A stretch of DNA of 64,000 nucleotides from a bacterium (GTDB taxonomy: Bacteria; Hinthialibacterota; Hinthialibacteria; Hinthialibacterales; Hinthialibacteraceae). The position numbers were made by a program, and so were the translations under genes. Positions 12,887 through 41,090 of the stretch are shown piece after piece. How positions within the stretch are numbered: the stretch's first letter is position 1; every line of letters begins with the position of its first letter. The notes below the pieces were generated by a model that did no database searches, was not told where the DNA came from, and saw only the letters and a program-made list of their open reading frames with translations. Where the stretch lies: the NCBI GenBank assembly GCA_963663405.2, contig CAXXSM010000160.1:11866-75865 (forward strand), written 5' to 3'.

Positions 12887-13817
12887 TTAATGAAGTTCCC
12901 AATCACTAACTAGTGTAGGAATCGCGAAGTACGCTTCAGTCCAGGTTTGGTCATTGTCCCCATTACCGACCCACATGACTTGCGTGTCGAATCCACCTTC
13001 CGGTTTATCTACATCGATACATAAATGAGTCAATCCAATCGTGCTGCCCTCCAGCGGTTCGGGAAGCAGTGGATCCCAACCAAGCATATCCATTTCCTCG
13101 TCTGTCAGAGTACTGGGATCTTCTGGATCGCTATAATATTTGCTGGTTTTGATCGATTCCCAGGGAATCTTAACTTCGATGGTATAATTCGTTCCATCGA
13201 TGATGACTACGCTTTCCCATCCTTCGTTCACTTCACCCCGCACAATTGTTCCATCGGGCAGTGTGTAATCATACGAGTCAGAGCGTGAGCCTCTCCGGGT
13301 GCCGACGGGCCACATCCGTGTCATCGGACTTGTTTGATCTTCGATTGCGCCAATAACGATGATCATTTCACCGGGTAACCATTTTTCTCCAGATATGTTT
13401 TCAATATCTGATAAGAAATCAGGGTAGAGGATGATATCTTGTTCGTCATTATTCGTGAAATCGATGAACCATTGCACGCCATCGCGTTCCCACCAAGCGT
13501 AAGGAGTTGTCGTATCGACGAAGGAAATATAATCATCCTCCACCTGGGCTGCGCAATACAGCGCTTCATCGTTGTAGAGCATCGCGAAAGTACAGACCGC
13601 GTCTGTGCCGTTCCAGTCATATCCACCGGTTTCGGCGACTGTATCAGCGCCATAGGTTACCCATTCCGCGTTTGTCCAAATCGCCCAAATCCCCATCAAT
13701 GACGGGACCGCTTGTTGGATTGATCGTATACAACGGGCCCAATGGGTTCGTTCCCCATGCGTTTAATCCCATGATAAGAACTAAGCTGGTAATGAATATC
13801 GTCACATTTTTTTTCAT
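12887..13817 (-). CDS. Secreted CBM9/DOMON-like sugar-binding domain protein (1-bp frameshift near 13679)
   Basis: ATG 13817 with AGGAG RBS encodes signal peptide MKKNVTIFITSLVLIMGLNAWG then PVIDGDLGD. Removing one T gives IDGDLGDWTNAEW, continuous with ORF 12887-13699 (YNDEALYCAAQVEDD, DGVQWFID, YTIEVKIPW are DOMON-like/CBM9 motifs). Ends TLVSDWELH. Confidence 0.7.
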
Positions 13818-14088
13818 CGTACCGTCTCCTCAATTGATTTAAAATAACATACTTCTAACGTAACATAATTGTCACTTGATTTCTAGAAGAAAATGAAATG
13901 AAAGAATTATTTTTCGAAAATATGGTTTATCGCATGGGCTCGTTGATTTCGGAAAAATACAATGAATCGTGTTTCATAATCTCTTCCTATAGGCGTGTTG
14001 GGAGTTGTACGATATCATACGAAACGGATGGAACGAGATTGGATATTCCTGTTTCATCCAACGTGCCATTAACAGGAACGTAAAAATA

Positions 14089-14985
14089 ATGCAGAAGACT
14101 GACTTTGATTCAATTGTGGATAAGGGACTCTCACTTATTATCCCCGTTTATAATGAAAAAGAGAGCGCGCCGGATTTTTTGGCTTCATTGCGTTCATTCT
14201 CTCAATCCTGCCCTTTTCCTCTTGAAGTGATTCTGGTTGACGATGGATCAACCGATGGAACCGCCTCGCTTTTAGAAGACGCGCCGTATCAGGTTATCCG
14301 GCATGACACGAACCGGGGATATGGCGCCGCGATCAAAACCGGCGTCACACATGCGCGGTATGAAGCCGCCGCCATCGCCGACGCGGATGGGACATATAAT
14401 TTAGATGACCTGCTTGCAATGGTTCCACATCTGGATCAATGTGACATGGCGGTCGGCGCCCGGACCGGTCAGGATACCCAGATCCCACTCATGCGCCGTC
14501 CCGCGAAATGGTTGATCGGCGTCTTTGCGGCGTGGCTCACCCGCCGTTCGATCCCCGATCTCAATTCGGGACTGCGCGCGTTCCGGCGTAGTGAAGTGGA
14601 AAAGATTCTACGTCTATTGCCGGATGGATTCTCACTTACGACCACTCTGACGATTGCTTTTCTCACAGGTGGAAGACGTGTATACTATCAACCCATCCGA
14701 TATGGCAAGCGCGCGGGACGATCTAAGTTTCGTCCTTTGGCCGATACGTGGAACATGATTCTGTTAATCCTGCGGACGGTGGTTTTGATTCGCCCGTTGA
14801 ATTTCTTCGTTCCATTCAGTCTCTTTCTTTTCCTTTTGGCCTTGGGCGTGGGAATCGTCAGTAAATTCGTGTTCGATCATTTCATGGACGCCACGTTCAT
14901 CGTTCTCATGATGACCAGCATCCAGATGTTCGCGCTTGGATTAATCGCTGATTTGATTGTACGGACGAACTTATGGACGCATTGA
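14089..14985 (+). CDS. Glycosyltransferase family 2 (DPM1/GtrB-like) with two C-terminal TM helices
   Basis: LSLIIPVYNE, ILVDDGSTDGT, NRGYGAAIKTG, DADG and DLNSGLRAFR. Confidence 0.92.
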   Translation: MQKTDFDSIVDKGLSLIIPVYNEKESAPDFLASLRSFSQSCPFPLEVILVDDGSTDGTASLLEDAPYQVIRHDTNRGYGAAIKTGVTHARYEAAAIADADGTYNLDDLLAMVPHLDQCDMAVGARTGQDTQIPLMRRPAKWLIGVFAAWLTRRSIPDLNSGLRAFRRSEVEKILRLLPDGFSLTTTLTIAFLTGGRRVYYQPIRYGKRAGRSKFRPLADTWNMILLILRTVVLIRPLNFFVPFSLFLFLLALGVGIVSKFVFDHFMDATFIVLMMTSIQMFALGLIADLIVRTNLWTH

Positions 14986-15055
14986 AGGAATGATCGACCG
15001 ATCTCCAATCCATTACCGTTTCGGATCATGATTAGGGAGGATCACGAAAAGTCTC

Positions 15056-16879
15056 ATGAATTTGAAATCTCTTACGTGTATTACTGGTTTCTTTCTTATC
15101 TTGCTATTCAGCGCCTGTGGCTCAAAAGAGGAGGCGGTGAAATCGCCGGATCCGGATTTGATCCTTCTCACGTATGGAGACCGGACGATCGACGCGCGCG
15201 ATGTCTCAATCGCGTTTCAAGAATCTCATTCGTTCGAGGATCTACTCATCGCCAGTTTCACACAGACCGCCACAGATATTGTTCGGGATATTGCGGAAGA
15301 CCTCGCGTTCAAGCGGATCATAGGCGAACGAGCGAGAGCGCTTGGTCTGCATGAGAGAGAATCGTTCAAACAGATTCACGACCGGGTTGTGAAGGATGAA
15401 CTCTACCAAAAATTGATGATCGATGAGGTGTTGAGTAAAATCCGCTTTACCGAAAGAGACCTGAAGCGTTTTTATGATGAAAACAAAGAGAGTCTTTATC
15501 GGGAAAGCGATTCCAACGCCTATGTCATTAGGGCGATCTATACAATATTTTCAGACGAGGAATCGAAAAAGAAAGCCCGCGCGAAAATCGAAGAAGCCTA
15601 CCAGAAATTGGAAGCAGGGGAGCCGTTTGAGTCCGTCGCATTGAATTATTCGGAAGCGCTTCAACATAAACGTGGAAGAAAAAATTATTTTACGCCCGGC
15701 TTGGCGGCGCCGGAAGTGGAAAAACGGTGGAAGAGCCTGAAAAATGGCGCATACTCAGAGATCTTTGAACGGAGGAATATGTACCGGATTGATCAACGAG
15801 TTGAATTCATCGAACCGGCTTTCATCCCCTACCAGAAAGTGAAAACAAAAATCGTTGAACGGATGACGAACGAACAACGGGACCGGAATGTCTTGTTTCT
15901 CTCACAGGAATTAGCGCAAAAATATAATCTCAATGTTTTTCCCGATCTCATAAGCGGCGCCATTGAGGTGGAATCTTCAACAACCGTTTTATCAATTCCC
16001 GGCGTGCTTGAATTAACCCTCGCTCAATTTCAGGATCTCGCGGAGAGGGAACAAAAACGAACGGTTCAAGACCAGTTGGATTACCTGACTTTCTTGGCCA
16101 ATAAAACACTCTTTATCGAAGAGGCGCAACGCCGGGGATGGACCGAAGCGGATGTGGCCTTTACCACCGCCTATTGGGATACGTTGCAGTTGGAAAAGGA
16201 ATTTCTTTTTTCCGAACTTGAAAAATTCCTTGAGAAAAACAAACTCACCGACGCGTCGATGTTGACTTATTTCAACTCGAACAAAGACAAACCGGAATTT
16301 CAAACGCAACAAATCTATGATCTCAGCCGTTTATTCTTCCCGTCGGGATATCAGGAGGGAATGACTCGTTTTGAAACCCAAACGATGTCCCTTCGATCCC
16401 GGACCAACGCGTACCGGGCATATGAATCGATCGCTGCAGGGAGTTCGTTCAATACTGTCGGCGCGTTATTTTCCCTGGACGCTGATTTTGCGCAAACAGG
16501 GGGACGAATTGGACGTATTCCCTACGACCAACTTGACAGGGAAACACAATTGGCCGTCAGGCAGATGATCGCTGGCGAGATCAGCGAACCGCAAAGAAGA
16601 ACCGCTTCTGAATTGGAACGTGGGGGATATGCGATTTACTATGTTCGTGACCGGATTCCCTCGCGTTTGATGACGTTTAATGAAGCTAAAGAAGTAATCA
16701 AAATCAAAGTAAAAGATACTTTTTACGGACAAAGACGAACCGAACTCAAACAGGAATTCGAAGAACAATATCCCCTTTCCTTCAATGACTCCGCCGTATA
16801 TGAACTCGTAAAATATTTAACGAGCCTCGCCCAGCGCGCCGATTGGCAAAGCGATATTTCAAGATATACGAGACCGTAG
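15056..16879 (+). CDS. Parvulin-type peptidyl-prolyl isomerase / foldase lipoprotein (PrsA/SurA-like, two rotamase domains)
   Basis: Lipobox LFSAC; AYQKLEAGEPFESVALNYSE and AGSSF...FS.D...GGRIG...GEISEP rotamase-like segments. Confidence 0.75.
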   Translation: MNLKSLTCITGFFLILLFSACGSKEEAVKSPDPDLILLTYGDRTIDARDVSIAFQESHSFEDLLIASFTQTATDIVRDIAEDLAFKRIIGERARALGLHERESFKQIHDRVVKDELYQKLMIDEVLSKIRFTERDLKRFYDENKESLYRESDSNAYVIRAIYTIFSDEESKKKARAKIEEAYQKLEAGEPFESVALNYSEALQHKRGRKNYFTPGLAAPEVEKRWKSLKNGAYSEIFERRNMYRIDQRVEFIEPAFIPYQKVKTKIVERMTNEQRDRNVLFLSQELAQKYNLNVFPDLISGAIEVESSTTVLSIPGVLELTLAQFQDLAEREQKRTVQDQLDYLTFLANKTLFIEEAQRRGWTEADVAFTTAYWDTLQLEKEFLFSELEKFLEKNKLTDASMLTYFNSNKDKPEFQTQQIYDLSRLFFPSGYQEGMTRFETQTMSLRSRTNAYRAYESIAAGSSFNTVGALFSLDADFAQTGGRIGRIPYDQLDRETQLAVRQMIAGEISEPQRRTASELERGGYAIYYVRDRIPSRLMTFNEAKEVIKIKVKDTFYGQRRTELKQEFEEQYPLSFNDSAVYELVKYLTSLAQRADWQSDISRYTRP

Positions 16880-16976
16880 TATTTCGCTGCGATAGAAATC
16901 AGCGCTGGAATGTGCATAATGGAACACAATTCTAACGCATGAACGATCGATTCGCAAAAAAAGGGGGAAAGTGACG

Positions 16977-18767
16977 ATGAAGAACAAAGGATTTACTTGT
17001 TGTATCGCAGCGTTGCTTAGTATCTTCTGCGCGCAATTGGGTTGGGCGCAATTCGGTGTGTTTGAAGAGGAAATCGATTGGCCTCAGATTGGAGATGTGA
17101 AATTGCCGGGAAATACGTCTGTCTCGGGTTCGGGGGATGACGCCGTTTACACCGTCCAAGGCAACGGAAATGGTCTCAGCGCCGCTACCGATACGGATGA
17201 AGCCTACTTTGTTTATAAAGATATGACGGGCAGCTGGTCCCTTCAAGCCTTAGTCTCATGGGATGATCCCACGGGGATTCCATTCGGCACAGTCGGATTG
17301 ATGATCCGGGACGATGAGGAGAATCCCAGTTCGAGGTATTATTCACTTGTCCTGCGATCCGATGAGACAAGTGACCGTTTGGAAACCATCTTCCGTAACC
17401 TCTATTTCTATGGCAGCCTCCAAAACACGGAACACCGCACTCCCGATGATGAACCCATCTATGATCAAGGAAATGGAATATGGCTTCGCGTCACCCATAT
17501 CGCGCCGCTTCAGTTATTTATTGGTGAATACTCCTTTGATGGTGAAGAGTGGGTTTTAGCCCATATTCAAGTGCTTCCCTGGGGGAATGAGACTTTGGCG
17601 TATGGTGTCATGATCAGCAATGATGAAGATAATGATTTCATGGCGCAGGCGCAATTACAGAATGTAGAATTTCTCCCCGCGTTCCCCGTCGCGGAACGGA
17701 CATTATCCAAAGCGGCGTTCACGAGTGAGGATACGATTGATGTGTCCATTGAATTGTTCAATCCAGGGGATCCAGCGGCGATTGTGATTCAAGAAACAAT
17801 CCCCCAAGGGTGGACTCCTGCGAATATCAGTCATGATGGAACCTTTGCGGATGGTGTGATCACTTGGGATCTGGCGGATGTAGCCAACGGAAGTTTGGTT
17901 CTCACATACCAGGCTATCGCCCCGGCTTCTCCGGAAGACCGAGCTGATTGGACAGGAACGATTGTTGGTGGATTGGAAATACAAGGGAAAAGCGGTCTGC
18001 TCTTTACCGGTGGAAACGTAGAGCGGATCACGGATGGATTGCTCGCTCTCTATACATTCAAAGAAGGAGATGGCGATACGGTCCATGATGTATCGGAAGC
18101 AGGGGATCCTCTGAATTTGACCATCTCGAATTTATCGAATGTGGAATGGGGGCAAGGTTTTCTTGCGGTCAATGGCGCGGTCAAAATACGCTCTGGAGAT
18201 CCAGCCACTAAACTCATTGAAGGGATTCAAGAAACAAATGAGATCACAGTTGAAGCATGGATCGCTCCCGCCAATGATGTCCAATCCGGCCCCGCGCGAA
18301 TCGTCACGCTCTCGTATAACGCATCACTAAGAAACTTCACGCTGGGACAGGCCGGGACGGAATACCGGTTCCGCATCCGCACGCCAGACACCGGCAACAA
18401 TGGAAGTAATCCCGAACTCCGAAGCCCGCCCGATATTCTCACTACGGTTCTTACGCACGTAGTCTATACACGGGATGATTACTGGGCGACTTCCTTATAT
18501 GTGAATGGGGATGTGGTAGTAAATGATGACAATATCCTGGATATTATCGATAATTACATTAACGGAGATATTACCGGCTGGGATGACACCTATGAATTCG
18601 GTTTGGCGAATGAGATCAACGAAGAGCGACCCTGGTTGGGGGATCTTCATTTAGTCGCAGTCTACAATAAACCTTTGTCCGAAGATGAAATCGGTCAAAA
18701 TTTCGCCGCCGGCCCATCGGCGGGACCGGGTTTCATCGTGGATGTCGCCAATTGGTCCCTCTATTAA
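16977..18767 (+). CDS. Secreted protein with ConA/LamG-like jelly-roll domains
   Basis: Signal peptide (..AQLGWA|QFG); C-terminal LALYTFKEGDG...ITVEAWI...THVVYTRD...LYVNG...VAVYNKPLS is LamG-like; ends VDVANWSLY. Confidence 0.75.
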   Translation: MKNKGFTCCIAALLSIFCAQLGWAQFGVFEEEIDWPQIGDVKLPGNTSVSGSGDDAVYTVQGNGNGLSAATDTDEAYFVYKDMTGSWSLQALVSWDDPTGIPFGTVGLMIRDDEENPSSRYYSLVLRSDETSDRLETIFRNLYFYGSLQNTEHRTPDDEPIYDQGNGIWLRVTHIAPLQLFIGEYSFDGEEWVLAHIQVLPWGNETLAYGVMISNDEDNDFMAQAQLQNVEFLPAFPVAERTLSKAAFTSEDTIDVSIELFNPGDPAAIVIQETIPQGWTPANISHDGTFADGVITWDLADVANGSLVLTYQAIAPASPEDRADWTGTIVGGLEIQGKSGLLFTGGNVERITDGLLALYTFKEGDGDTVHDVSEAGDPLNLTISNLSNVEWGQGFLAVNGAVKIRSGDPATKLIEGIQETNEITVEAWIAPANDVQSGPARIVTLSYNASLRNFTLGQAGTEYRFRIRTPDTGNNGSNPELRSPPDILTTVLTHVVYTRDDYWATSLYVNGDVVVNDDNILDIIDNYINGDITGWDDTYEFGLANEINEERPWLGDLHLVAVYNKPLSEDEIGQNFAAGPSAGPGFIVDVANWSLY

Positions 18768-18782
18768 GAATTTTACACCGGT

Positions 18783-19565: not shown

Positions 19566-19802
19566 GATTGACCATTCCTTTCATTTGTATTGTTATTTCA
19601 AACAATCTACGTGCGTTAGTGATCGACTACTATACTTCGGCTGTTTGTGAAATTGAAGTTGTTTCCCAGACATTTTGATCCACAAATAGTAGAATGGCGC
19701 CAAAATGGGGATGAAATGGGGATGGTTGGTGGATGCTTTGGGGATGGGATTTCTTCTACGATTCTTCCTGAAAGTGTTATTGTGACTAGGAGGAATTGCA
19801 TT

Positions 19803-20590: not shown

Positions 20591-20635
20591 CTAGTGAATT
20601 ATTTTTTGGATACTATAAATGGAATGGGTAATGAT

Positions 20636-23435: not shown

Positions 23436-23825
23436 ATGCCGCGCCCAACAAATCCCATACTAACCGATTGGGAAATGAAATTAATGGATATCATTTGGGA
23501 AAAGGATACGGTGACCGCTAAGGAAATTCAATATATCCTTTTTAAGCAAAAAATCGTTTGCAGTGATTCTGCCATTCGAAAAACACTTAGGGTCTTGGAA
23601 ACGAAAGGTGTGTTAAAGCATAATCGTGAAGAGAAGGCGTATATCTATATGCCGGCTGTTGTCAAACGGTCTATACAAAGCAAGGCGATCCAGCATCTCG
23701 AAAATATCTTTTTCCGTGGATCAGGAGACGCCATGTTCCTCAAAATGGTTGAAGATACGGATATATCAGACGATGCGATCTCCGAAATGCGCCGGATTTT
23801 AGAAGAGAAAAAGAAAGACGAATAA
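23436..23825 (+). CDS. BlaI/MecI/CopY family transcriptional repressor
   Basis: LTDWEMKLMDIIW...TAKEI...LRVLETKG...AYIY.P...FFRGS pattern; 129 aa; translationally coupled (TAATG) to an M56 gene. Confidence 0.92.
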   Translation: MPRPTNPILTDWEMKLMDIIWEKDTVTAKEIQYILFKQKIVCSDSAIRKTLRVLETKGVLKHNREEKAYIYMPAVVKRSIQSKAIQHLENIFFRGSGDAMFLKMVEDTDISDDAISEMRRILEEKKKDE

Positions 23826-26053
23826 TGGGCATTTTTGATGTCTCTCAGTTCGTTAACGATTCCTTGAAATGGAAAGAGGTGTTGGAGTGTCTGTTCCTTT
23901 GGGCTCTCACAGCGTTCTTTATTCTTTTAATCTATTTTCTTGCGGACTGGTACAACATTAAAAATACAATACACACTCGTTCTAAACGATGGAAATTCAT
24001 TTTATGTTTGCTATTTTTCTTTCCGTTTCTATATACGATCGGTTTCTTTCATATTAATGTCTTTCTCCCGGTTCAATCTTTGTCTGGTGAATATTCGATT
24101 CTTTCCCGGTATGGTTTACTCGGTTTTTGGATTGTCTATTGTGTTGGATTCTTTTGCGCGTTCAGCCGATTTCTTTTGAAAAGAAGAGACTTATCTAGTT
24201 TCCTGAAAACCAGTGAAGCGTGTCATTGTGATTGGATTACAGAATGTGTACATGAAATGGTGTCCAAATTGGGGATCAATAAAAATATCCAAATTCGCAT
24301 TCACCAGGGAGACTTGATCCCTTGCATCATCGATGGTTTTCGACCCATATTGCTGATCCCCGCTTATTGTGTAACCGATTGGTCGAAAGAACAATTAAAA
24401 CCGGTTATCATCCATGAATTGAACCATATCAAATTCGGCGATTTCTTTTATACGAAAGTCATGGAACTGGTGACATTGTTTTTATGGTTTTTCCCGGGGA
24501 TTTATATGCTTCGTAAACAGATGAATCTCTGCAGGGAACGGTTGAATGACGAAGAAAGTGTAAAACACTGTTCGTCTCCAGCTGAATATGCGCAATCTTT
24601 TTTACTGCTATTAGAATGTGCGAAACGCCAACAATACGATCCTCTGCATATGAACTTTGCAAGTAGAAATGAGGCGGTCTATCGATTTAAAAAGATTTTT
24701 GAAGACCCACCGGTTCCAAATCGCATATCTCGTGCGCTGGAATGGACTTGCCTCGTTTGTGTCATTGCCTTTACTTTTTTTGCGGGAAATTTCCACTTCT
24801 CTTACGCCCAGGACGATTCCAATTCCATAGAAGCGGTCGCAATCCCTTACACTATTAATGAGGTGATGTTTCCCGAATATCCCGTACCATCGCCAGTGGC
24901 CGAATACAATCTTGACTTAAAAGAACAGTCGGATGAGGAATTCGTGGAAGGATTTACAGAGGGATTTTACGCCAATCATACTCTTTGGTATAGAAAAACC
25001 ATAGATTCTATCGTTGGATTTCAAGAACAGAACGGGAATTTCACCTCTTCTCCCTCTGTAGAAATTAAATTACCGAGTGCAAAAAAGTACTCAAACCGTA
25101 CTGGTCAATCTTCTGAAGCCTTATCTCATGATTTCATAGCTGCCAACGATTCATTTCTCATTCTGACAACAAGAGATAAAAGAGCCGGGATGGAAGGTTT
25201 TTTGGAGAACCAAGATTTAGAAGGCGGAATCTATTTAATCGATATAACTGATCCTTTGCATCCCATTCTATCCACTCATATCCCCGCGCAAGCGGCGGGT
25301 GGGATTACTCTTTTTGAAGATACATTGATTGCGCAGGTTACTCTCATCGAATCCTATTATGATGACATGTTTATAAAAAGTACTAATTACCTGATTGAGT
25401 ATGATCTTTCGGATTGGAAAACTCCTCGAGAACGCTGGCGGTATCCATTGCCGGACAATCAATATATCTATTCCGCATGCTTTCATCCTGGCAGACCGGA
25501 TATACTCTTTGCCGGGGGATCGGATTTGTTAGTTTTTGAGATCGCAGGTGAGACAATCGATCTGAAGCATCATTGGTCTATCGCGGAAGAACAATACCAT
25601 GTAATAAACATGCTAATGTTCCCGAATCATCTTGTTATCAGCTTGCAGAGCAAAGGTACAATGATCTTCGATGGAGAAGTAATGCGCTACTCAGCCTTGG
25701 GACTGATTCCTCTTGATTATGAAGGTGACGTGCCCAATATGCAAATCTACCCATTGATGAATCGGGATGAAAACAGATCCGTATTAATAAAAACAAATGT
25801 CCACGATCGGTTTATATTTACTGTGACATCCACTCAAGGATTAGGTAATTTTTACACGGCGCAACTTTTTGATGATAGTGGATTATTGCCAATCGCTTTC
25901 TTTCCACTGGGAACCTTGAATAACGCAGTAATCAAGGATGGAGAACGGATTTTCCTCGGAGAAAATCCCGTACAAGTATACGAATCCAGTAGCTTTTCGC
26001 CGGCAGTTAGTGTTTATAATTGGAAGCAATTAGATAACTTCGTCAAATTATGA
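23825..26053 (+). CDS. BlaR1-type peptidase M56 sensor with a non-penicillin-binding extracellular domain
   Basis: N-terminal TM helices, P.LLIP, IIHELNHIK.GD (HExxH), WFFP and RERLNDE; about 410-aa C-terminal ectodomain with LVIVD-like YLIDITDPLHP / EYDLSDWKTP repeats. Confidence 0.88.
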   Translation: MGIFDVSQFVNDSLKWKEVLECLFLWALTAFFILLIYFLADWYNIKNTIHTRSKRWKFILCLLFFFPFLYTIGFFHINVFLPVQSLSGEYSILSRYGLLGFWIVYCVGFFCAFSRFLLKRRDLSSFLKTSEACHCDWITECVHEMVSKLGINKNIQIRIHQGDLIPCIIDGFRPILLIPAYCVTDWSKEQLKPVIIHELNHIKFGDFFYTKVMELVTLFLWFFPGIYMLRKQMNLCRERLNDEESVKHCSSPAEYAQSFLLLLECAKRQQYDPLHMNFASRNEAVYRFKKIFEDPPVPNRISRALEWTCLVCVIAFTFFAGNFHFSYAQDDSNSIEAVAIPYTINEVMFPEYPVPSPVAEYNLDLKEQSDEEFVEGFTEGFYANHTLWYRKTIDSIVGFQEQNGNFTSSPSVEIKLPSAKKYSNRTGQSSEALSHDFIAANDSFLILTTRDKRAGMEGFLENQDLEGGIYLIDITDPLHPILSTHIPAQAAGGITLFEDTLIAQVTLIESYYDDMFIKSTNYLIEYDLSDWKTPRERWRYPLPDNQYIYSACFHPGRPDILFAGGSDLLVFEIAGETIDLKHHWSIAEEQYHVINMLMFPNHLVISLQSKGTMIFDGEVMRYSALGLIPLDYEGDVPNMQIYPLMNRDENRSVLIKTNVHDRFIFTVTSTQGLGNFYTAQLFDDSGLLPIAFFPLGTLNNAVIKDGERIFLGENPVQVYESSSFSPAVSVYNWKQLDNFVKL

Positions 26054-26087
26054 TTGGGATTAAGACGGGAAAAGATCCTTGTCTCTC

Positions 26088-26660
26088 ATGAAAAAGCAGT
26101 CTTTTACGCTAATAGAATTACTTGTGACAGTGACAATCGTTGGCCTATTGGCTATGATCGTCATTAATCTGTCACTTAACGCGAAAGTTCGCGCTGAAGT
26201 GGCGCGCGTACAGACTGATTTCCGTTCGATCGGTGAAGCCTTTTCCGAATATTGGATCGACCATTCGACCCTTCCAGGCGGCGGGTTGTCTGTTCTTGGT
26301 GGACAGCGGTATATCAGCGCATTGTCAGTCCTGACAACGCCGATCGCATATTTGAACGTACTTCCTGCTAGCCCCTGGGATAGGAACTCAATGTATTTAA
26401 ATGATACTTTGGTGATTCAGAATGTGTATAACTCTTATCAACGCAGGGGCATGCCTTTTGATCTTGAGGGTTGGAAAGAGAGTTGGATTGGGGGTTCAGA
26501 CTATCATTATTTCTCTGGGAAACTTGGAATCGATGGAGGTACATATGACTGGTTGTTAATTAGCAACGGTCCCACACAAATCCCTGAATCCAATCTATAT
26601 GATTCAACCAATGGAATCATCAGTCTTGGTAGAATATGGCGTCTCGGTGTGCTTGAATAG
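26088..26660 (+). CDS. Prepilin-type N-terminal cleavage/methylation protein (pseudopilin, GspG-like)
   Basis: MKKQS|FTLIELLVTVTIVGLLA; AKVRAEVARVQTDFRSI, LTTPIAYL, WLLISNGP and YDSTNGIISLGRI. Confidence 0.85.
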   Translation: MKKQSFTLIELLVTVTIVGLLAMIVINLSLNAKVRAEVARVQTDFRSIGEAFSEYWIDHSTLPGGGLSVLGGQRYISALSVLTTPIAYLNVLPASPWDRNSMYLNDTLVIQNVYNSYQRRGMPFDLEGWKESWIGGSDYHYFSGKLGIDGGTYDWLLISNGPTQIPESNLYDSTNGIISLGRIWRLGVLE

Positions 26661-26779
26661 TATATTTTTTTTATTATATGTGTTATATTGATAGCTTTAT
26701 TGAATGGTGTTATTTAATATAAATCGATGTCAAAGTTTGATGCGAGGATTATGAAAGCGAACATGGCAAAAGGAGAAGA

Positions 26780-27214
26780 ATGATGAGAGCGGAATTAAAA
26801 AGAATTGTTGTATGCGTAATTGTTGTAGGATCTTTCATTTTTATCCCATTTGGAAGCAATAATGTCGCTGACAGTGTGACATGTGATCGCTGTAAGGAAC
26901 TTAATTATGGTGGAGATTGGATTTGCTCGAACGCAGGCAGCAGCACTTGCGCATGGTACATAATACAAGGGTATACGGCGTGTTGCGCGGTGTCGGGTTC
27001 AGCCGATTGTGAAGATTTGGTCGGTGGTGAAAGTATCCCGTTCTATTATCGAAACACAACAGGAACTTCGGTGACATGCAAATGGCGTTGCGCTCAAACG
27101 ACCAATCCAGGTGATAAATGTGACGGTGCAGATACTGCTTATCCGATCAGTGGCAGCTGCACGGTGACTGGTTCAGAATTGCAAGGGTCAACATCATATG
27201 CAAGATGTGATTAA
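26780..27214 (+). CDS. Small secreted cysteine-rich protein
   Basis: AGGAG RBS, hydrophobic N-terminal signal, 12 Cys in the roughly 115-aa mature part, ends ARCD. Confidence 0.75.
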   Translation: MMRAELKRIVVCVIVVGSFIFIPFGSNNVADSVTCDRCKELNYGGDWICSNAGSSTCAWYIIQGYTACCAVSGSADCEDLVGGESIPFYYRNTTGTSVTCKWRCAQTTNPGDKCDGADTAYPISGSCTVTGSELQGSTSYARCD

Positions 27215-32675: not shown

Positions 32676-35600
32676 TTAATAAATCATCCAACACTCCACC
32701 TGTGTCGGCAGGTCCGTTGCGGTAATCGTTCCATTCTCGATATTGATGGGGATCTCGTTAAGATTGATATCATACGCCGCCAGGTTCGCGAATGTAAGTG
32801 GCGATGTCTTGACGTCGGCTTCAGGATCTAATTGATATTCCAGCGTCATGACGGAACCATCCCCCGTGAATCCCGATGCGCGAATCCAATTGAAGCGCGC
32901 AAGTCCCCGGATGGCAGGTAAAGATCCAGGATTGAATGTATGAAGCGTATTCGGCGCGAGAGGATCGATTGTCTCATCCATGAGCATGAGTTGAGACGCG
33001 TCGTATTCAATATCAAACGCCAGATTCCCCAACTCGGAAGCGTTTGAAACGGTTACATCGAGAGAGGTCGTTTCGCCACGGGAAATATCGGCGGAACTCA
33101 TAGATAGCGTAATCGGATCGCCGGTCGCGAGTGTCCGCAAAGATCGGTGGGACGCGGTTGCGTTCGATTGAGCGATTTCGTTGGAAAGCGCGCTCAACGC
33201 GCCCAGGTTTTTCAAGATAAATTTATCGAGTCCATAATTCGGTTGCATGGAATCGAACGCTGTATAGGTTAAACGGTTGGGAAGGCCGCTTGAACCGATG
33301 GCGTAAATCTCTTTTCCTCCATCCCGGTCAGAGGAGAAGAGAAGCGTTCCCTCATAATAATTCTCACTGATTCGGGCTAAAGCCCATTCCGGATCATCAT
33401 CGTTCGCGAGATTGTATGTATAGCGGCGGAGAGTTCCGGAAGTCAAATTGATTGAATAGATTTCCGGATTTCCATCCCGGTCGGAGACAAAGGCGATTTC
33501 ATCGCTCGTATGGGTACCCCAAACGGGCTTGTAATTATTTCCTACGCCGTCAGTCAGCTGCCGTGGATTGGCGCCATCCGCGTCCATAAGCCAAATATCC
33601 ATATTCCCGCCACGATCGGAAGTGAATGCGATCGTGCTTCCATCATAGGACTCTGCGGGATGCCGGTCGATCGCTGGATTGACTGTCAAACGCTCCGGTG
33701 GGGGTGGTGGAACGAAGGCGCGGATCATATAGGGATTCTCTATATCAAGCGTATCCCACCATTCATATTCACTCGACCAAATCCGGCTATTATAGTATTC
33801 ACCAGAGGCTGAACAGCCAATTTCGGGTCTATTGTCTTCTAGAAAAACAATAGCGACGAAAAAGTCTTCGGGAACTTCGATCGGTTCTAGATCGACGGAA
33901 AACCATCCGGTTTCAGCCGGATTCGCCGTTCCTTCCGCTAGAATCGTATCCGATGGAGAGAAACGATCCCATTCGTGTATTTTCCATCCAAACCGCGCCG
34001 GTTGTCCGGCGATGTAGAACGAGATGCGGCGCAGTGTAGACGGTTTGACAGAGAATCGCACACCCAACATATCGCCCGCGGCTCCAGTCGCAATGCTGCT
34101 GAAAATCCCATCATCATAGGCAATGCTTCCAAAAGGAGTTTCTAAATCGAGTTCGGAACGGTATATCTCCGGATTGCCATCTCGTTCAGAAACAAATACG
34201 ATGCTGGTTGATTCGTCGCGCCAGGATGGATCGTAATCCGCGGCGGGATCGATTGTAAACTGTTTGGGTTCTGTCTCATCCATCTGGAGGACCCATAGAT
34301 CCTGATTCCCGCTTCGCTCGGAGGTGAACAGCATTGTATCTCCGGATGGATTTAATTGCGGATCGAAATCGTTCGCGGGATCAGACGTTATTTGAATCGG
34401 TGTCTCCAGCGCGCGGGAGAAGAGATAAATATTTTGATTGTCCGGCGTCCCGGATGTAAAGACAAACGGTGGATCGTACGCCTCATTGCCTTCACTCAAA
34501 TTGACAGGGCCGAATTCCGATGTGTTGCCATTGGGATGAATGACGATCGCATGATATTCAAATCCCATCGGCCGGGCGCACTCGGCGTAGAATCGCTGAT
34601 TGCGGACGGTGGCTTTTCCTATCATCATTTCCCCTTCATCCGCGAAATCGGCGTAGATTTCAACTACGCTTCCATTCGGCGCGCCATCCGCCGCGCCACG
34701 CAGTTTTTCCGTTCTTCCTGGCAGAATCCAGTCGATCACGGGCGCGGTAATATTATTGTTGCCGCCTTGCAGATTAATTCCTTTCATATTGTTGTCTGTG
34801 ATCATATTGCGGCTGATGAAGTTACGATTCGAACTCCCTCCTTCGATCATAATTCCATCCCGCCGGTTTTCGAGGATCATATTCCCTACGATAACGTTGC
34901 TGTTGGCTCCGTCTCCGATCATGATTCCATGATCGCTGTTGCCTTGAATCACATTCTTTCTGATTTCCACTTTCTTGACGCCATCACTCAGTTGAATACC
35001 GTGTCCATTGGCGGTATAGCTGGAATCGAATAAGGAATAGGAGCCACCGATGATATTGTTATAAATAAAAACCTGCGTGTTGGCGCCCTCTGCGATAATC
35101 CCCGCCAGCCCATTGCCTTCGATATAGTTACCTTCCTGCTCGGTCAGACCACCGATCCAAATCCCTTTGCCTCCATCCACTTGAACGCCGATCCCATCAA
35201 AGAAGGTGTTATCAAAGATTTCGCATTCTGAAATTTGAACCGTGCGAGTGTTACTTCCCTGAATCCAAACACCATACGATTCATTGTCATGAATATATAC
35301 CTCACTCCCCTTGCCGCTGCTTCCTACATATATGTCTTGGGAATCTTTGATGTTCAATCCCGCGATCTGGTTGCTGTACAGTTCTAAGAGTTCATCATAT
35401 CCAGCTAGATAGACATGATCTGAATTTTCTATATATACTCCACTCTTATTGTTCCTTTCGCAGGTTACGCTCGTTAAATAGATTTCCGAGGAATTGTTAA
35501 TGATCGAAATTCCATCCCCCCGGTTTTGATCAATGATACAGCGGGTGACATCAATGAATTTGGAATCGTCGATCACCATTCCCGTCGAATTTTGTTGGTT

Positions 35601-38600
35601 ATTGAACGTGATTTCATCCACGAGAATGTCCGTGCAGCCACGCATGATCAGGCCTTCGTTGGTATTGACCCAGATAAGAGACGAATCTCCTTGTATAGTC
35701 ATATTGGCGCAGTTCTCTAAAACCATCCCCTTATCTGAACACCGGTAGATGACAGTGTCATCGAACAGGATGTCGTGCGCCTTCTCGGCGAGAACGCCGA
35801 TTTGGGTCGCGTCTTGGATGACATTGCCTGAGAAAAAGTGATTACTGCAATCTTCACCGGAGAGATATACATTCACATTAAAGGATTTAATTTCATTATC
35901 GAAGATATCAATTCCCCAGGAATTATCGATCAGCAGACCGTACCCATTGGGGTAATAGGGGTAGGATGGAAATTCTTCCCCCGCGGCTACGAACGGAATG
36001 AATCCGAGTGTATTGTCTTCTATCAATGCGGACGAGAAAGGAAGCCCCATTTCTGGAATTAGATCATCGATAAGGATCCCGCCTTCTCCGTTATTTCCAA
36101 TCGCATTGCTGAGAATCATGTTATAGGGCGCGTTGTTCATGATGGCGACGCCGAACAACCGGTTCAATTTTCGATCGGTCAAAACATGGGCTTCAGAACC
36201 GATTGTGCACTGTTCGATTACGTTGAACATCGTGCCGGCGCCATCGATCATTACACCATTCCCGTCATTATCTTTTATGATCAGGTTTTGGATTAAATTA
36301 AAATTGGCGCCTTCGTGAATCAATACACCATCGCCGCCGTTCATGGCGTTCGCGTTTGGGTATAGTTCTTCCGAATAGTTTTGAATGCCGATTGAACCTC
36401 CCACAAAAACATTTCCATACGTCATTTCCCCCTCGAGAACAATCCCGTGGCTTCCATTCCCCATGATCCAATTCTGATCGAACCGGTTCTGATTTGAGCC
36501 TCCAAGGATCCATACACCATACTTCTTATTCCCAGCAATAATTCCTGATGGAGTCGAATTGAAGTCCGTATCTTTCCATCCCCCTGCGTATAGGGAAGTA
36601 AATGTGTTTAATTGAGTTTTTTCTCCTGTAAGCGCAACTCCGCAGTCATTGTTATTGAGAAAGGCGCCATTCGTCTCGTTCATCTGAGAGCCGTTTAAAA
36701 TATATAGACCGTTCTTGGGATTGTTGGCGGATATAATGGATTCCAACTTGTTATAAGTGGAATCATCCAACACAATCCCATGCCCATCTTTGGTGTTGAT
36801 GGCTTGGATTGCGCTTAATGTGTTATCGTCACTTTGGTCGAGAGTGACTCCGCTGGTCTGGCATTTGTCAGCGGTAATCTTATTGCATTGGTTGCCATAC
36901 GATTTTTGGATATAGACGCCGTTCGCGCAGTTTTCAATCGTGAGAGTGTCACTCGTTTTTTCTGGATAATTTTGTGTCAAGCCAGAGACGGTATTCCCGT
37001 TTGTTTCTTTTAATTCCACGCCGTACTGGCTACAGTTATCGATTTTTTCAACTTCAATGACATTCAATTTCCCCTTGTTGACACTCACACCGCTGCTGTT
37101 CTGGAAGCCGGAGAGATGGAGAGTCATCAGAGTGTTTTCCTGTCCGTCTTCGATAAGAACGCCTTTCCCGTCCCAAGGATACAGTTTGGCCTTGACGATG
37201 TTTTTCCCTCCGCCGTTAATGTGAACAACATTGCCTCCACTGCCTTTCACAGTCACGGAATCATCAATCTGATTCCCAAAACCTTTTTCAATCCAAATCC
37301 CCGCTTGAGAGCCGGTCTGTAGAGACAATGTGCTGCCGCTGATGTGCGCTGAACTGCCTTCGAACTTGATGGGCTGTGAACTGTTTATGATCCCATTGAT
37401 GATGTAACATCCATCCAGCAACGCGATCGGCCGGGGGAATTGATATTGCAGAATTACATTGCTTGACATTTCAATCCGGTCCAACTGACCGAGGCGCAAC
37501 TCTTCCCCTGCGTTATATGTCCCTGGATTCAGAATTCGGATCAAATCGGCTACGTCTTTTCCCGTGTAACTCTTATAATCGGTGAGAGGGGAATTATAGA
37601 CGGAAACTAGATCCCCTTCTTCCAAGGTGTGTCCTGTATCGGTGTCCAGGTTCTCATCATACATGGGAACCAGTTCTTTTCTTCCCCCTTCCAGATTGTA
37701 GTGATTTTGACGGATGTGTTTTCGGATTTCATGGGCGGGGCCGTTACTGGTTCCTAGTTTTTTGGGAGGATCGATAGCGCCGGCGATCCATTGTTTATCA
37801 TAAATGGGTTTCCCATCCGCGTCTTCACCAATTTTTACATTCTGTTGGAAATAGTTATGTATTTGTTCTTCGTTTTCATCATCCCAGACGATTCCTCCAG
37901 ATAAGGCAAATGGATTCTCTTTTCCACTGGCGAACGCCACCGCCTCGTCAAATGATATGTTTCCATTAGGGTTGAGCCCGGAGGATGTATCGGTCACGGT
38001 GATCGTCGCGTTCCCACCCGTCAGCTGTGGCGCGGCGGGAATGACAACGCCTGGATTCTTTTTGATCGTAATTTGATTCGACAATCCCGCTGCATTCCAG
38101 ACCTTCACGGGCAGGGATTCATTATCATCACCTACGGTTGGCATCCGGAATGTAAGCCGGCTCTTTTGAGCCGAATCAGGACGGTACCACCGGTCTTTCA
38201 CGGATACCCATGTCTCGTGCAGATTGTCACCGGTGAGAACGATCGATTCCCCGGCCATCGCTTCGGTTACATTTTGATTTTGGATGACAGGTGGTCCCAG
38301 AACTTTGAAAGGGATATGAGTGGATTCTTTCCCCGTGATTGGCGAGCGGACGTAAATCTCTGTATCACCCGGATCGATCGCAGGGACGCGAACCCCCAGT
38401 TTGTTTCGATATTTCTCAACAATCGTGCCTTGTTTATCGCCGAAATAGACGTAATCGAGTCCGTCGAAAAAAAACTCGTAACCCGTAATTGTAATAATAC
38501 TGCCGCCGGTATCCGAGATATAAATTCCAGATGGAACGTTGGTGATTGCCGAGTAGCCCTCCGCTGGTTTGACGCTTTCGATGAATGGAGCAGGATCGTA

Positions 38601-41090
38601 AAGGAATTTCAGTGTCGCTTGCGCTGGTTTTTGTGACGCGACCGTATCGACGGTGAGCGCATACTCGCCCTTGGTCAATCCATCAGGAACTTTTACTTCC
38701 AGACGGGTAGTCCGGGCCGAGACGACTTCGGCTTTTTTATTTCCAAAATAGACATTGTTATTCTCCGGCTGGCCTGAAAAACGCTCTCCAGTAATAACCA
38801 CGGTCTCTCCCGCCGTTCCCTTTTCAGGAGAAAATGTATAGATCGAAGGTGAGAATGGATCTCCAACAACGACCAGCGCGGTTTCGAGGCATGTGGGGCC
38901 TTGCGCGATTTCCGCCCCATATACATTGATAATCTTCCCACACAGAGCAAGACCACGTTCAATGATCCGTCCAAAGGAGGAAATCTTATCCAGCGCTCCT
39001 AACAAAGACATCGCTGTGTTAAGAACTTTGGTGGTTGTATTTTGCACTTTTTCTTTCAATTGCTCCTTGAGTTCATTTTCTACATTATCTTTTATCTTTC
39101 CTTCATAATAGGATACGCCTCCTTGTGGAGCCGCCGTCATAAAACCAAGCGCCATATCGGCGGCGGTTACAAATATCAAACGCAGATATTCTTTCAATCC
39201 AGCTTTGGAGGATTCAATATTACTCAGTTCCTGAGAGATACGCCGGGCGCCGTTTTGAGCCGCTTTTTTCATCCCGGCCCGGTTCCACCGCTTGGCGTCC
39301 TTTGTGAATAAATCCCAAATATCCACCGCCATCATAACGAGATTGATGGCCATCGTTTCGTAGACCTGTTTCATTCCATCCGGCATGGCGTTAATCGCCA
39401 CCACATCTTCCGGTTCACTGCTATAATAGGGTTGTACCCCGCTGAATGCGCGAATTACATACACTCCATCGCCATACTGGAGCGGCAATACATTGCTTAC
39501 ACCGATGAAATAGTCCACGATTCCCCGGAACGCCATATCTACCAGTGTGTAGACTACATCGATTTTTGCGGTCCATTGGTTGGCAGGCACCAGCAGGGAG
39601 GCCTGATAGCCGGTCCGGTCGAATGATTCCTTCATCAGTTCCAGGAACGAAACGTTTAATCCGCGAGGCATGTCGTCCGGGTCGACACGGTATAGTGTGA
39701 CCATCCATTCCAACGGGCTGTAATCGCAAGCCCGATTCACTTGCACGCTGTCTTTCTCTTTTAAATACCGCAGGCGGATATAATCTGTGTCAATTCCCCA
39801 TACTTTGACGTTCGGCCGATAGTACTCGTCCTGTGTTGTGTTGCTTTGTGATTCACTGGCGAAGGGGACTTGGCGGTAGGGAAGTTTGTTGATGGGAGTG
39901 GATACGTGGGAGGCGCGTTTCCCAAAGGCCATAGTCTGATTCCCGTTAGCCGCTTCGTTGTCAAGAGAGATCATATATTCGTCTGGAATGGCGTTCAGCA
40001 GCGCATGTGTAGCCGCCGTCCATGCCGCTAGCACGTCTGGATCATTCAGCCCATCCGCGCCTTGAGGGTATCGTTCGGCAATGACGCGCTCGAGTTCTTT
40101 TACTTCTGGAACTGTATTCAATAAGTTTTCAACAATCCCGATGACATCCGGATCGTCAGTAAGGAGCATGGGATTCATAAAAAGCAACGCTTTCGCCGTC
40201 GTAAACGCGTTGATTTCAAACGGGGCCTGCCCATCAACACGCGGAGAACCCATGACTTGTGTGCTTTGAGAGGAATTCGATACGTAATAGGGATATAGGA
40301 ACACCAAGTACGTATTGTTCGCTTCCCCTGAAGAGGATGCGGCGATCAAGGTGAGTTGATCTTCAGGAATTTGCAGGGAAAACACGCCTTCATCATTATC
40401 GATATTCGCCGCGTGAAGATCGTAGCCTACAATGAAATCTTTCGGATCCAAATCACCATCAACAGTCAACACTCCATCGCGTAATTCCGTGACGTAAAAT
40501 ACGTCCTGGCTGACCGCTGTTCCACCCGGCGTTTGGATGGTGATAGAATTTGTTACCGCCCCATCCGGCATGGTCACGGTGATGGCCGTTCCCGTGGTTT
40601 CTATGATCGGCGCTGGAAGATCGACGAACAAAACGGTATTATCACCGGGAAGACCGGCTAGAAAATTTTGTCCGGTGATTGTCACTTCTGTCCCGATTGG
40701 CCCGGCGCGTGGCACGAAATCGTCGATCACTGGAGCGGATTCGCTGTAATCGCCTGTAATCTCACTCGTGGGGATTAAACCGACCGCTTGCAGCAGAATC
40801 CGGTAGGCGTCATCCTCCGTGAGCGTTCCATCACCCATGATACGTCCGTCAATGCCGGGGAATGGGAACACATCGCCTTGTGTGACTTCTTCAGCGTTCG
40901 CTGGCTCCAATCCCTCGACGGATCGCATGATTTTAAGCGCATCCCGGCCATCGATTGTTCCATCGCTTGTGATGTCACCTTTAAGAGCCGATTCCTGAGC
41001 GCCGGCGGGCGTCAAAAACAGTCCTGTCATAACAATGAGAAGTGAAAAAACGCGAATGTTCAGCTGAATTAAACAGGAAATACAATTCAT
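32676..41090 (-). CDS. Giant (about 2,800 aa) secreted multidomain protein: dockerin-like, IPT/TIG, parallel beta-helix, PD40/TolB-like propeller, cohesin-like
   Basis: Signal peptide (..TPAGA|QE); GDITSDGTIDGRDALKIMR and GDV...GDGTLTEDDAYRIL; P..GPIGTEVTITGQNF and FSPEKGTAGETVVITGERF; many N..GV.I beta-helix repeats; FVSERDGNPEIY-type repeats; terminal beta-sandwich; ends TQVECWMIY. Confidence 0.85.
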   Translation of the reverse strand: MNCISCLIQLNIRVFSLLIVMTGLFLTPAGAQESALKGDITSDGTIDGRDALKIMRSVEGLEPANAEEVTQGDVFPFPGIDGRIMGDGTLTEDDAYRILLQAVGLIPTSEITGDYSESAPVIDDFVPRAGPIGTEVTITGQNFLAGLPGDNTVLFVDLPAPIIETTGTAITVTMPDGAVTNSITIQTPGGTAVSQDVFYVTELRDGVLTVDGDLDPKDFIVGYDLHAANIDNDEGVFSLQIPEDQLTLIAASSSGEANNTYLVFLYPYYVSNSSQSTQVMGSPRVDGQAPFEINAFTTAKALLFMNPMLLTDDPDVIGIVENLLNTVPEVKELERVIAERYPQGADGLNDPDVLAAWTAATHALLNAIPDEYMISLDNEAANGNQTMAFGKRASHVSTPINKLPYRQVPFASESQSNTTQDEYYRPNVKVWGIDTDYIRLRYLKEKDSVQVNRACDYSPLEWMVTLYRVDPDDMPRGLNVSFLELMKESFDRTGYQASLLVPANQWTAKIDVVYTLVDMAFRGIVDYFIGVSNVLPLQYGDGVYVIRAFSGVQPYYSSEPEDVVAINAMPDGMKQVYETMAINLVMMAVDIWDLFTKDAKRWNRAGMKKAAQNGARRISQELSNIESSKAGLKEYLRLIFVTAADMALGFMTAAPQGGVSYYEGKIKDNVENELKEQLKEKVQNTTTKVLNTAMSLLGALDKISSFGRIIERGLALCGKIINVYGAEIAQGPTCLETALVVVGDPFSPSIYTFSPEKGTAGETVVITGERFSGQPENNNVYFGNKKAEVVSARTTRLEVKVPDGLTKGEYALTVDTVASQKPAQATLKFLYDPAPFIESVKPAEGYSAITNVPSGIYISDTGGSIITITGYEFFFDGLDYVYFGDKQGTIVEKYRNKLGVRVPAIDPGDTEIYVRSPITGKESTHIPFKVLGPPVIQNQNVTEAMAGESIVLTGDNLHETWVSVKDRWYRPDSAQKSRLTFRMPTVGDDNESLPVKVWNAAGLSNQITIKKNPGVVIPAAPQLTGGNATITVTDTSSGLNPNGNISFDEAVAFASGKENPFALSGGIVWDDENEEQIHNYFQQNVKIGEDADGKPIYDKQWIAGAIDPPKKLGTSNGPAHEIRKHIRQNHYNLEGGRKELVPMYDENLDTDTGHTLEEGDLVSVYNSPLTDYKSYTGKDVADLIRILNPGTYNAGEELRLGQLDRIEMSSNVILQYQFPRPIALLDGCYIINGIINSSQPIKFEGSSAHISGSTLSLQTGSQAGIWIEKGFGNQIDDSVTVKGSGGNVVHINGGGKNIVKAKLYPWDGKGVLIEDGQENTLMTLHLSGFQNSSGVSVNKGKLNVIEVEKIDNCSQYGVELKETNGNTVSGLTQNYPEKTSDTLTIENCANGVYIQKSYGNQCNKITADKCQTSGVTLDQSDDNTLSAIQAINTKDGHGIVLDDSTYNKLESIISANNPKNGLYILNGSQMNETNGAFLNNNDCGVALTGEKTQLNTFTSLYAGGWKDTDFNSTPSGIIAGNKKYGVWILGGSNQNRFDQNWIMGNGSHGIVLEGEMTYGNVFVGGSIGIQNYSEELYPNANAMNGGDGVLIHEGANFNLIQNLIIKDNDGNGVMIDGAGTMFNVIEQCTIGSEAHVLTDRKLNRLFGVAIMNNAPYNMILSNAIGNNGEGGILIDDLIPEMGLPFSSALIEDNTLGFIPFVAAGEEFPSYPYYPNGYGLLIDNSWGIDIFDNEIKSFNVNVYLSGEDCSNHFFSGNVIQDATQIGVLAEKAHDILFDDTVIYRCSDKGMVLENCANMTIQGDSSLIWVNTNEGLIMRGCTDILVDEITFNNQQNSTGMVIDDSKFIDVTRCIIDQNRGDGISIINNSSEIYLTSVTCERNNKSGVYIENSDHVYLAGYDELLELYSNQIAGLNIKDSQDIYVGSSGKGSEVYIHDNESYGVWIQGSNTRTVQISECEIFDNTFFDGIGVQVDGGKGIWIGGLTEQEGNYIEGNGLAGIIAEGANTQVFIYNNIIGGSYSLFDSSYTANGHGIQLSDGVKKVEIRKNVIQGNSDHGIMIGDGANSNVIVGNMILENRRDGIMIEGGSSNRNFISRNMITDNNMKGINLQGGNNNITAPVIDWILPGRTEKLRGAADGAPNGSVVEIYADFADEGEMMIGKATVRNQRFYAECARPMGFEYHAIVIHPNGNTSEFGPVNLSEGNEAYDPPFVFTSGTPDNQNIYLFSRALETPIQITSDPANDFDPQLNPSGDTMLFTSERSGNQDLWVLQMDETEPKQFTIDPAADYDPSWRDESTSIVFVSERDGNPEIYRSELDLETPFGSIAYDDGIFSSIATGAAGDMLGVRFSVKPSTLRRISFYIAGQPARFGWKIHEWDRFSPSDTILAEGTANPAETGWFSVDLEPIEVPEDFFVAIVFLEDNRPEIGCSASGEYYNSRIWSSEYEWWDTLDIENPYMIRAFVPPPPPERLTVNPAIDRHPAESYDGSTIAFTSDRGGNMDIWLMDADGANPRQLTDGVGNNYKPVWGTHTSDEIAFVSDRDGNPEIYSINLTSGTLRRYTYNLANDDDPEWALARISENYYEGTLLFSSDRDGGKEIYAIGSSGLPNRLTYTAFDSMQPNYGLDKFILKNLGALSALSNEIAQSNATASHRSLRTLATGDPITLSMSSADISRGETTSLDVTVSNASELGNLAFDIEYDASQLMLMDETIDPLAPNTLHTFNPGSLPAIRGLARFNWIRASGFTGDGSVMTLEYQLDPEADVKTSPLTFANLAAYDINLNEIPINIENGTITATDLPTQVECWMIY

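Follow-up and report, generated by a model that had tools for sequence, protein, structure and literature searches.

A nine-residue C-terminal tail of the form [T/V/S]-x-V-x-[D/N]-W-x-L-[Y/F/H]-stop recurs on 196 of the 7,236 genes called de novo in genome G000 (8.44 Mb, 82% complete), a member of the Hinthialibacterota from which the window analyzed here, a stretch of 64,000 nucleotides, was taken. The tail is a real C-terminal signal without a catalogue entry, and it is very probably a sorting or docking tag. New here is its link, in both gene order and taxonomic range, to an expanded family of GspG-like pilins. In two phyla, pilin genes adjoin tagged genes far more often than expected by chance, which makes the tail a likely pilus-type docking label; a more specific proposal, to which we give about an even chance, is that a type 4 filament (a pilus or a T2SS-like endopilus) reads it as a docking peptide. 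Gene counts for G000 are approximate because of many frameshifts, which affect the window CBM9 gene, the giant GspK gene, a long C25 gene, and several carriers and pilins.

The terminal tag and its carriers

The window holds the following relevant features, with no RNA holder listed for it.

12887..13817, minus strand: CBM9-like (PF06452) secreted-protein gene, frameshifted near 13678, with the signal peptide in the upstream frame (Pfam, ORFs)
12890..12916, minus strand: nine-residue tag of the CBM9-like/DOMON protein (sequence; PSSM 22.8 bits)
16977..18767, plus strand: LamG-domain (PF13385) protein with a signal peptide, tag carrier (Pfam, AF2 model)
18738..18764, plus strand: nine-residue tag of the LamG protein, predicted to be disordered and outside the domain (PSSM 21.7 bits; pLDDT)
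23825..26053, plus strand: BlaR1/M56-type membrane protein with a tag-resembling ending below threshold (PF05569; 6.1 bits)
26079..26660, plus strand: GspG-like pilin, a divergent copy within the expanded family and a candidate part of the reader system (PF07963; family HMM 104.8 bits)
32676..41102, minus strand: 2,808-aa protein (TIG, beta-helix, PD40 propeller) with a signal-peptide-like start, tag carrier (sequence, Pfam)
32679..32705, minus strand: nine-residue tag of the giant 2,808-aa protein (PSSM 21.9 bits)

The initial annotation had noticed matching C-termini at the stops at 12887, 18767, and 32676, and all three are present, at 22.8, 21.7, and 21.9 bits; its remark that no cytoplasmic, Tat, or lipoprotein product of the window shares this ending agrees with the scores, as none of the others among the 44 window ORFs of at least 100 aa scores above 0. 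The ending of the BlaR1 ectodomain, which had been read as a variant of the tag, is not counted here, scoring 6.1 bits with six extra residues, below both the 10-bit threshold and the lowest carrier (11.2 bits; carrier median 20.4). Sec signal peptides, assigned earlier to all three carriers, are found on the LamG protein and, as a signal-peptide-like start, on the giant protein, but the DOMON ORF (12887-13699) has none in its own frame. The signal peptide of that gene begins at 13817 in another frame, which stops after 57 codons; a single low-depth contig of a related strain has one base fewer at 13678, with which the CBM9 frame would stay open.

The PSSM was iterated and trained on these 196 carriers, whereas the pseudo-terminus null was kept out of the training, and 0 of 35,111 pseudo-termini in G000 pass it. 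Of the carriers, 156 end exactly at the tag and 35 have one residue added. The regular expression [VI]..W.[LIVMF][YHF], applied to the 7,236 genes, places the motif just as sharply, with 133 genes at offset 0, 16 at +1, 4 at +2, and 0 to 2 genes at each of the offsets 3-11; seven internal look-alikes occur in the genome, none of them clearly a functional tag. Position -9 is T in 89, V in 48, and S in 48 of the 196 carriers, a mixture that would fit a docking strand more readily than a cleavage site. In the same set, position -8 is S, P, or A, position -7 is V in 72% and I in 16% (88% Val/Ile), position -4 is Trp, as demanded by the PSSM model itself, position -3, directly after the Trp, is E, S, M, or A (mostly E/S), position -2 is L/I/V in 90%, and position -1 is Y/F/H in 95%. 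The pattern first read from the window, V-x-[DNC]-W-x-[LI]-[YH], therefore stands in its overall form but not in its detail at position -5, where D or N occurs in merely 52% of carriers, and the Pro-containing linker that had been described with it is no distinguishing feature, Pro (12%) being flanked in frequency by Glu (13%) and Gly (10%). An ESM Atlas search with the tail was uninformative, with a best score of 0.80 and clusters without names. Two versions of the tail were observed, one with an aromatic end and the other with an extra basic residue and a shifted Val (loci L344, L356, L357, and L361 of genome G028; also in G000).

A proteome-wide regular-expression test for enrichment among exported proteins had been proposed along with the motif, and the enrichment is pronounced. 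Export-like N-termini were scored with two heuristics of our own, one strict and one looser, in place of SignalP. By the strict one, the tag is found on 125 of 1,510 signal-peptide proteins versus 57 of 3,767 others (OR 5.9, p=4e-30); by the looser one, 153 of 182 carriers have an export-like start versus 1,888 of 4,619 other proteins (OR 7.6). In 24 of the 38 carriers whose complete start is not export-like, a coding ORF abuts or overlaps the gene on its upstream side; it overlaps in 14 of the 38, versus 58 of 400 controls, as is expected of split genes in an indel-prone assembly. A few of the weak carriers appear to be cytoplasmic. The carrier proteins are acidic (median -9.3 versus -2.2 charges per 100 aa), and 183 of the 196 have no predicted transmembrane (TM) segment. 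In a side observation, 83 of 124 carriers have a Gln close to the point where the signal peptide is cleaved, versus 369 of 1,142 other secreted proteins, which resembles the pyroglutamate rule of Bacteroidota.

The carriers fall into 86 homology groups, or 108 when grouped by the domain adjacent to the tag; annotated domains include CBM9-like, LamG, FG-GAP, lamin-tail, and WD40, and 14 of the 28 proteins scanned in one carrier domain survey had no Pfam match. The claim that the tail is not the last strand of each domain agrees both with these 108 different adjacent domains and with the structure predicted for the window LamG protein, the sole carrier folded (AlphaFold2, 30-row alignment, mean pLDDT 81.6), in which residues 582-596 have pLDDT < 50 and lie outside the sandwich; in this one model the tag is thus placed outside the domain fold. 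Among the LamG homologues listed, 15 of 120 end in the tag; full-length homologues keep it, LamG domains in other taxa end at the equivalent position and lack the tag, and four homologues elsewhere bear a T9SS-type domain. A homologue search with a small tagged protein gave 23 hits, nearly all within the phylum and none with a Pfam domain; a swap for PEP-CTERM had been sought, and one of the 23 ends in a different C-terminal segment.

The giant window carrier has a full-length paralogue (G000:C85:20528-28882, 34% identical) in which an ending that is dockerin-like by eye replaces the tag, which suggests that the two endings may be interchangeable attachment modules. The window protein itself has, by eye, a dockerin-like start and a cohesin-like end, neither of which is reported by Pfam.

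Taxonomic range and catalogued signals

The tag recurs across Hinthialibacterota and Sumerlaeota and, in the genomes searched, is restricted to these two lineages, in line with the initial annotation, which had called it lineage-specific. A back-translated pattern of the tag matched 76 times in G000 versus 9 for the control, 5 to 87 times in 19 family members, 0 to 2 times in six outgroups, and 9 to 51 times versus 0 to 10 for the control in nine Sumerlaeota genomes. Because the pattern omitted TGA stops, counts were low in three genomes (G019, G006, and G028); loss of the tag there was considered and rejected, as ordinary tags are read in these genomes. Apparent tags outside the two phyla (G067, G076, G077, and G081) proved to be short non-genic frames in 17 of the 17 stretches fetched. 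A scan of one genome per species matched at least 109 stretches; among the matches listed, 80 had flanks, and 52 of these end a long ORF in frame, 49 of them in records titled Sumerlaeota, Hinthialibacteria, 'Omnitrophota', or unnamed bacteria and 3 in other named groups, which we take as chance. In a single case, a Gemmatimonadaceae-titled record (L051), an ORF that is PilX-like by its N-terminus has a perfect tag end, which may be chance or a natural last strand.

That the tail corresponds to no named signal was confirmed against the curated sorting families of NCBIfam and Pfam: none of 51 tails matched an NCBIfam model, and no Pfam family recurred. Tripartite sorting signals consist of a signature motif followed by a TM helix and a basic cluster (in the accessible part of 10.1101/2023.06.07.544157). 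Like LPXTG, PEP-CTERM, IPTL-CTERM, GlyGly-CTERM, and MYXO-CTERM, the tag is a short C-terminal motif present in many copies per genome on signal-peptide proteins; unlike them, it ends the protein, without a TM helix (183 of 196 carriers) or a basic tail. The exosortase model PF09721, whose positive control was detected, is absent from G000 (82% complete). The model TIGR04174, for IPTL-CTERM, which we take to be a similar-looking known signal, stayed under its cut-off in 5 of 5 genomes, with no control over the cut-off either. The beta-signal of the BAM system, carried by beta-barrel proteins, also consists of alternating hydrophobics ending in an aromatic; we rejected it, as position -3 of the tag is mostly E/S and the annotated carriers have soluble domains and are not barrels. 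No published paper describing the tag or the pilin expansion was found in a search of openly accessible main texts; in the accessible parts of the Hinthialibacter paper (PMC9324843), 'C-terminal' and 'secretion' are used 0 times, as are 'pili' and 'C-terminal' in those of the Sumerlaeota paper (PMC8092238).

Gene linkage to an expanded pilin family

In G000, one GspG-like pilin family has expanded to 142 paralogues, whose N-termini are nearly invariant, and the family pattern matches 25 to 203 times per genome across the class. The family is present in 35 of 35 class genomes and 9 of 9 Sumerlaeota genomes (16-58 copies), versus 0 of 17 others (44 of 44 versus 0 of 17 in total). The 17 outgroups were not selected as near kin, sister phyla fall outside the sample, and kin genomes are not independent, so the shared range of tag and pilins across these two lineages is not a statistical test. 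One family pilin was modelled (pLDDT 94): its nearest fold is a type IVb pilin chain (9iuf, Z 8.2, rmsd 3.4, 149 aligned residues), with EpsG within 1 Z of it (Z 7.5, rmsd 2.4, 98 aligned), and the GspG-like assignment is tentative, GspG being listed only at Z 7.5/6.6.

Gene order ties the two together. In an unbiased neighbour test, whose blast clustering was limited to neighbour genes, the pilin family ranked first among all families, with 35 of 124 members within two genes of a carrier against a background of 9.2% (p=8e-10); the only other enriched families were two 4-member sets labelled by eye as sigma/anti-sigma-like. Pilins abut 24 of 196 carriers versus 45 of 993 other signal-peptide proteins (p=1.4e-4), and the number of carrier-abutting pilins, 25, exceeds the permutation maximum of 21. 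Among soluble secreted genes lying close to a pilin on the same strand, 15 of 28 are tagged, versus 196 of 1,374 (14%) genome-wide (p=8e-7). Transporter, regulator, and hydrolase families of the kind found in utilisation loci showed no comparable enrichment near pilins.

The same arrangement is seen beyond G000, in two relatives (G019 and G028) and in Sumerlaeota. In G019, 5 of the 25 listed tags abut one of the 53 listed pilins where 0.46 would be expected, both lists being partial. In G028, a tagged gene abuts the pilin in 5 of 19 pilin-centred regions, one of these tags scoring 5.2 bits, under threshold; three of the five consist of two tagged genes, with the two tail versions as an ordered pair, followed by the pilin. 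In regions of the Sumerlaeota genomes G051 and G048, centred on top-scoring pilins, a tagged gene abuts 7 of 20 pilins, always on the same strand, and 8 of the 10 tagged genes seen there abut one. The stop of a carrier overlaps the start of a pilin in a further Sumerlaeota pair, and one pair of carrier and pilin genes persists in 3 of 3 genomes that encode this carrier. Gene linkage between tag and pilin thus exceeds chance in two phyla and favours tagged proteins rather than all secreted proteins, while 88% of the carriers in G000 have no adjacent pilin. The earlier guess of a T2SS-like machine gains genomic support from this linkage, at the level of genes.

In the window, the family pilin (26079-26660) starts 25 nt downstream of the BlaR1-like gene. 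The order at 23436-27214 is a BlaI-like repressor, the BlaR1-like protein, with an ectodomain of the non-penicillin-binding type, the pilin, and, last, a small secreted protein rich in Cys; the arrangement may couple a sensor to the pilin. Elsewhere in G000, two secreted proteins of 701 and 636 aa (L286:245-4675, contig C22) carry a C-terminal family-pilin head without a membrane helix, behind a start that is thioredoxin-like by eye.

Candidate readers of the tag

If a type 4 filament does read the tail as a docking peptide, Sec would export the tagged proteins to the periplasm, where the filament would capture them via the tail. The W, V, L, and Y side chains may plug a hydrophobic groove, as a short strand or a one-turn helix, located on the family pilins or on a tip complex; cargo would be loaded during filament extension and would then leave through a secretin or stay at the surface. 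Against this, the linkage is compatible with shared substrate-specific loci without contact between tag and pilin, and PorU-like peptidases show the same presence pattern in tag-bearing genomes. The boldest form of the proposal, in which a universal tag clips hundreds of unrelated enzymes and binding proteins onto filaments of 20-200 interchangeable GspG-like pilins in two phyla, we regard as tentative and rather unlikely.

Substrate choice by type II secretion and type IV pili is described as poorly understood (PMC10120004), and the known linear pilus/T2SS signals serve one substrate each. Mass loading of pili, if true, would give type 4 filament/T2SS-like secretion, in the tag, its first general linear signal. 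With a tag present on about 200 proteins and linked genetically, in two phyla, to a pilin family of 140 members, substrate recognition would become directly testable by means of a synthetic peptide, and the nine residues might be used as a minimal handle for export or display. Even with a PorU-like or other reader, an uncatalogued sorting signal would mark the surface proteome of two poorly known phyla, and whatever its reader, the tag can be modelled for genome annotation.

Two precedents come close. The 10-residue, W-containing tail of PilC/PilY docks on PilX, and that of PilC/PilY1 docks on PilX/PilK by beta-strand augmentation (accessible part of PMC13711793). Like the tag, it comprises about ten terminal residues of a Sec-exported protein, a conserved Trp followed by hydrophobics, and a potential counterpart of PilX/PilK exists here in a class-wide minor-pilin operon with a GspK/PilX-like subunit that, judged by sequence, apparently lacks the last strand. 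In contrast, PilY1 tails run W-R-E-hydrophobic, according to the same source, and sit on one or a few propeller adhesins, whereas the tag runs W-x-L-Y and sits on about 200 unrelated proteins; the PilY1 propeller PF05567 was not found (control silent), and the tip subunit here has its own likely plug gene. The export signal of TcpF binds the tip pilin TcpB and is sufficient for export (accessible part of PMC10120004). The TcpF/CofJ signal is a short disordered terminal peptide by which a pilin reads a periplasmic protein for pilus-dependent export, as it would the tag, and the nearest fold of the family pilin is type IVb. It differs in being N-terminal, in serving one substrate per system, in addressing a trimeric tip pilin, and in being cut off after export (same source, same part), whereas the tag occupies a strictly C-terminal position in hundreds of proteins. 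By analogy, we infer that the tag may work like the PilY1 tail or the TcpF signal while being a member of neither.

Two candidate grooves were considered. In the pilin family, 31 of 128 members stop seven residues after a conserved motif, and one subfamily has a Gly-linked C-terminal extension with an invariant Trp and a terminal Tyr that packs at high confidence in the model; short pilins may offer in trans the site that this extension fills in cis. The likeness between this extension and the tag is loose, the tag PSSM giving it no more than 3.4 bits. The second candidate is the operon of FimT/PilV/PilW-like genes with a giant GspK/PilX-like subunit, present in 35 of 35 class genomes, in which 30 of 30 aligned giant copies terminate at the position from which the ordinary GspKs encoded in those genomes go on to form a last strand. 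Directly downstream, in five of the six families, lies a secreted gene with a conserved terminal segment of its own, which is likely, from its sequence and position, the cognate plug of the giant GspK; it was not found in 5 of 5 genomes searched for the sixth family. The giant GspK profile gave strong matches in 0 of 9 Sumerlaeota genomes and three weak ones, and Sumerlaeota PilX/GspK-like proteins keep the terminal segment. On the tag PSSM (carrier median 20.4), negative scores are obtained for the last strands of GspK, PilX, and GspG and for the plug alike. The plug gene, the Sumerlaeota endings, and these sub-zero scores weaken the strand-less giant GspK as sole reader. No tagged gene occurs in 10 giant-GspK loci or 3 T2SS loci; G000 has at least seven secretin loci and three T2SS-like operons.

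In G000 the minor-pilin operon (L139:1432-13258, contig C143) stands alone, neighbouring neither an ATPase gene nor a secretin gene; its FimT/PilV/PilW-like genes and the giant GspK-like gene are followed by one for a secreted protein whose ending is plug-like, and the operon is conserved across the class. The giant subunit is about 2,200 aa long and rich in Asp/Gly repeats, and its gene is frameshifted in G000.

Alternatively, the tail may be a non-covalent docking peptide for some other envelope protein, such as a scaffold, an outer-membrane translocon, or a PDZ/TPR-type binder, the pilin linkage then reflecting shared function. With 156 of 196 tags at offset 0 and 35 at +1, the tail is strictly terminal, which would suit a carboxylate-capped pocket; most carriers have no pilin neighbour, and no clear functional tag was seen among the seven internal hits. 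We consider this reading unlikely: pilin neighbours are specifically tagged proteins and not secreted proteins in general, neighbour families other than pilins are unenriched save for the two sigma/anti-sigma-like sets, and no alternative receptor candidate was identified.

The main rival, improbable in our judgement, is that a PorU-like C25 transpeptidase cuts near the start of the tail and attaches the protein to an envelope glycan or lipid, as a T9SS-type sortase without the folded CTD would. All 35 of the 35 class genomes, together with 5 of 5 Sumerlaeota genomes, encode C25 peptidases, 34 of 34 aligned sequences retain the catalytic His and Cys, and no exosortase was found as an alternative anchoring enzyme; PorU has been described as a sortase that cuts at a moderately conserved site (accessible part of PMC7468200). 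However, C25 genes are also found in 4 of 6 tag-less outgroups, and their best matches between the phyla are mostly 22-37% identical, without clear one-to-one orthology. At C25 loci 3 of 176 ORFs are tagged, a background level, 0 of 12 full-length C25 copies carry the tag, Val occupies position -9 in a quarter of carriers (48 of 196), and the pilin linkage would stay unexplained. The T9SS CTD with PorU (PF18962/TIGR04183, PF01364) is similar to the tag system in placing a terminal signal on many unrelated Sec-exported proteins, and intact PorU-like peptidases are present in all tag-bearing genomes searched; it differs in that the CTD is an Ig-like fold of about 80 residues, whereas the tag has nine and is unfolded in the model. 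The CTD model PF18962 had 0 matches and SprA stayed under cut-off in 5 of 5 genomes (both controls silent), PF13860 (FlgD-Ig) matched 0 to 2 times per genome, and the two PorV-like barrels were both sub-threshold; weak SprA-model hits were set aside as fragments of 38-49 residues without a homologue in their own genome.

It is very improbable that the tail has no sorting role, as a last structural element, a stability or degradation tag, or a product of chance: only one carrier was folded and a few weak ones appear cytoplasmic, but the absence of the motif from all 35,111 pseudo-termini, its 108 adjacent domains, the pLDDT below 50 predicted for the tail, the LamG homologues that end without it, and its conservation in two phyla speak against this, and the chance and structural-element readings are already refuted by these observations together with the model.

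At two further loci (L140:4410-8662 and L141:3862-7919), secreted proteins of the cohesin/dockerin type are followed by an outer-membrane barrel resembling FadL/PorV; these loci may represent a surface-scaffold system of their own.
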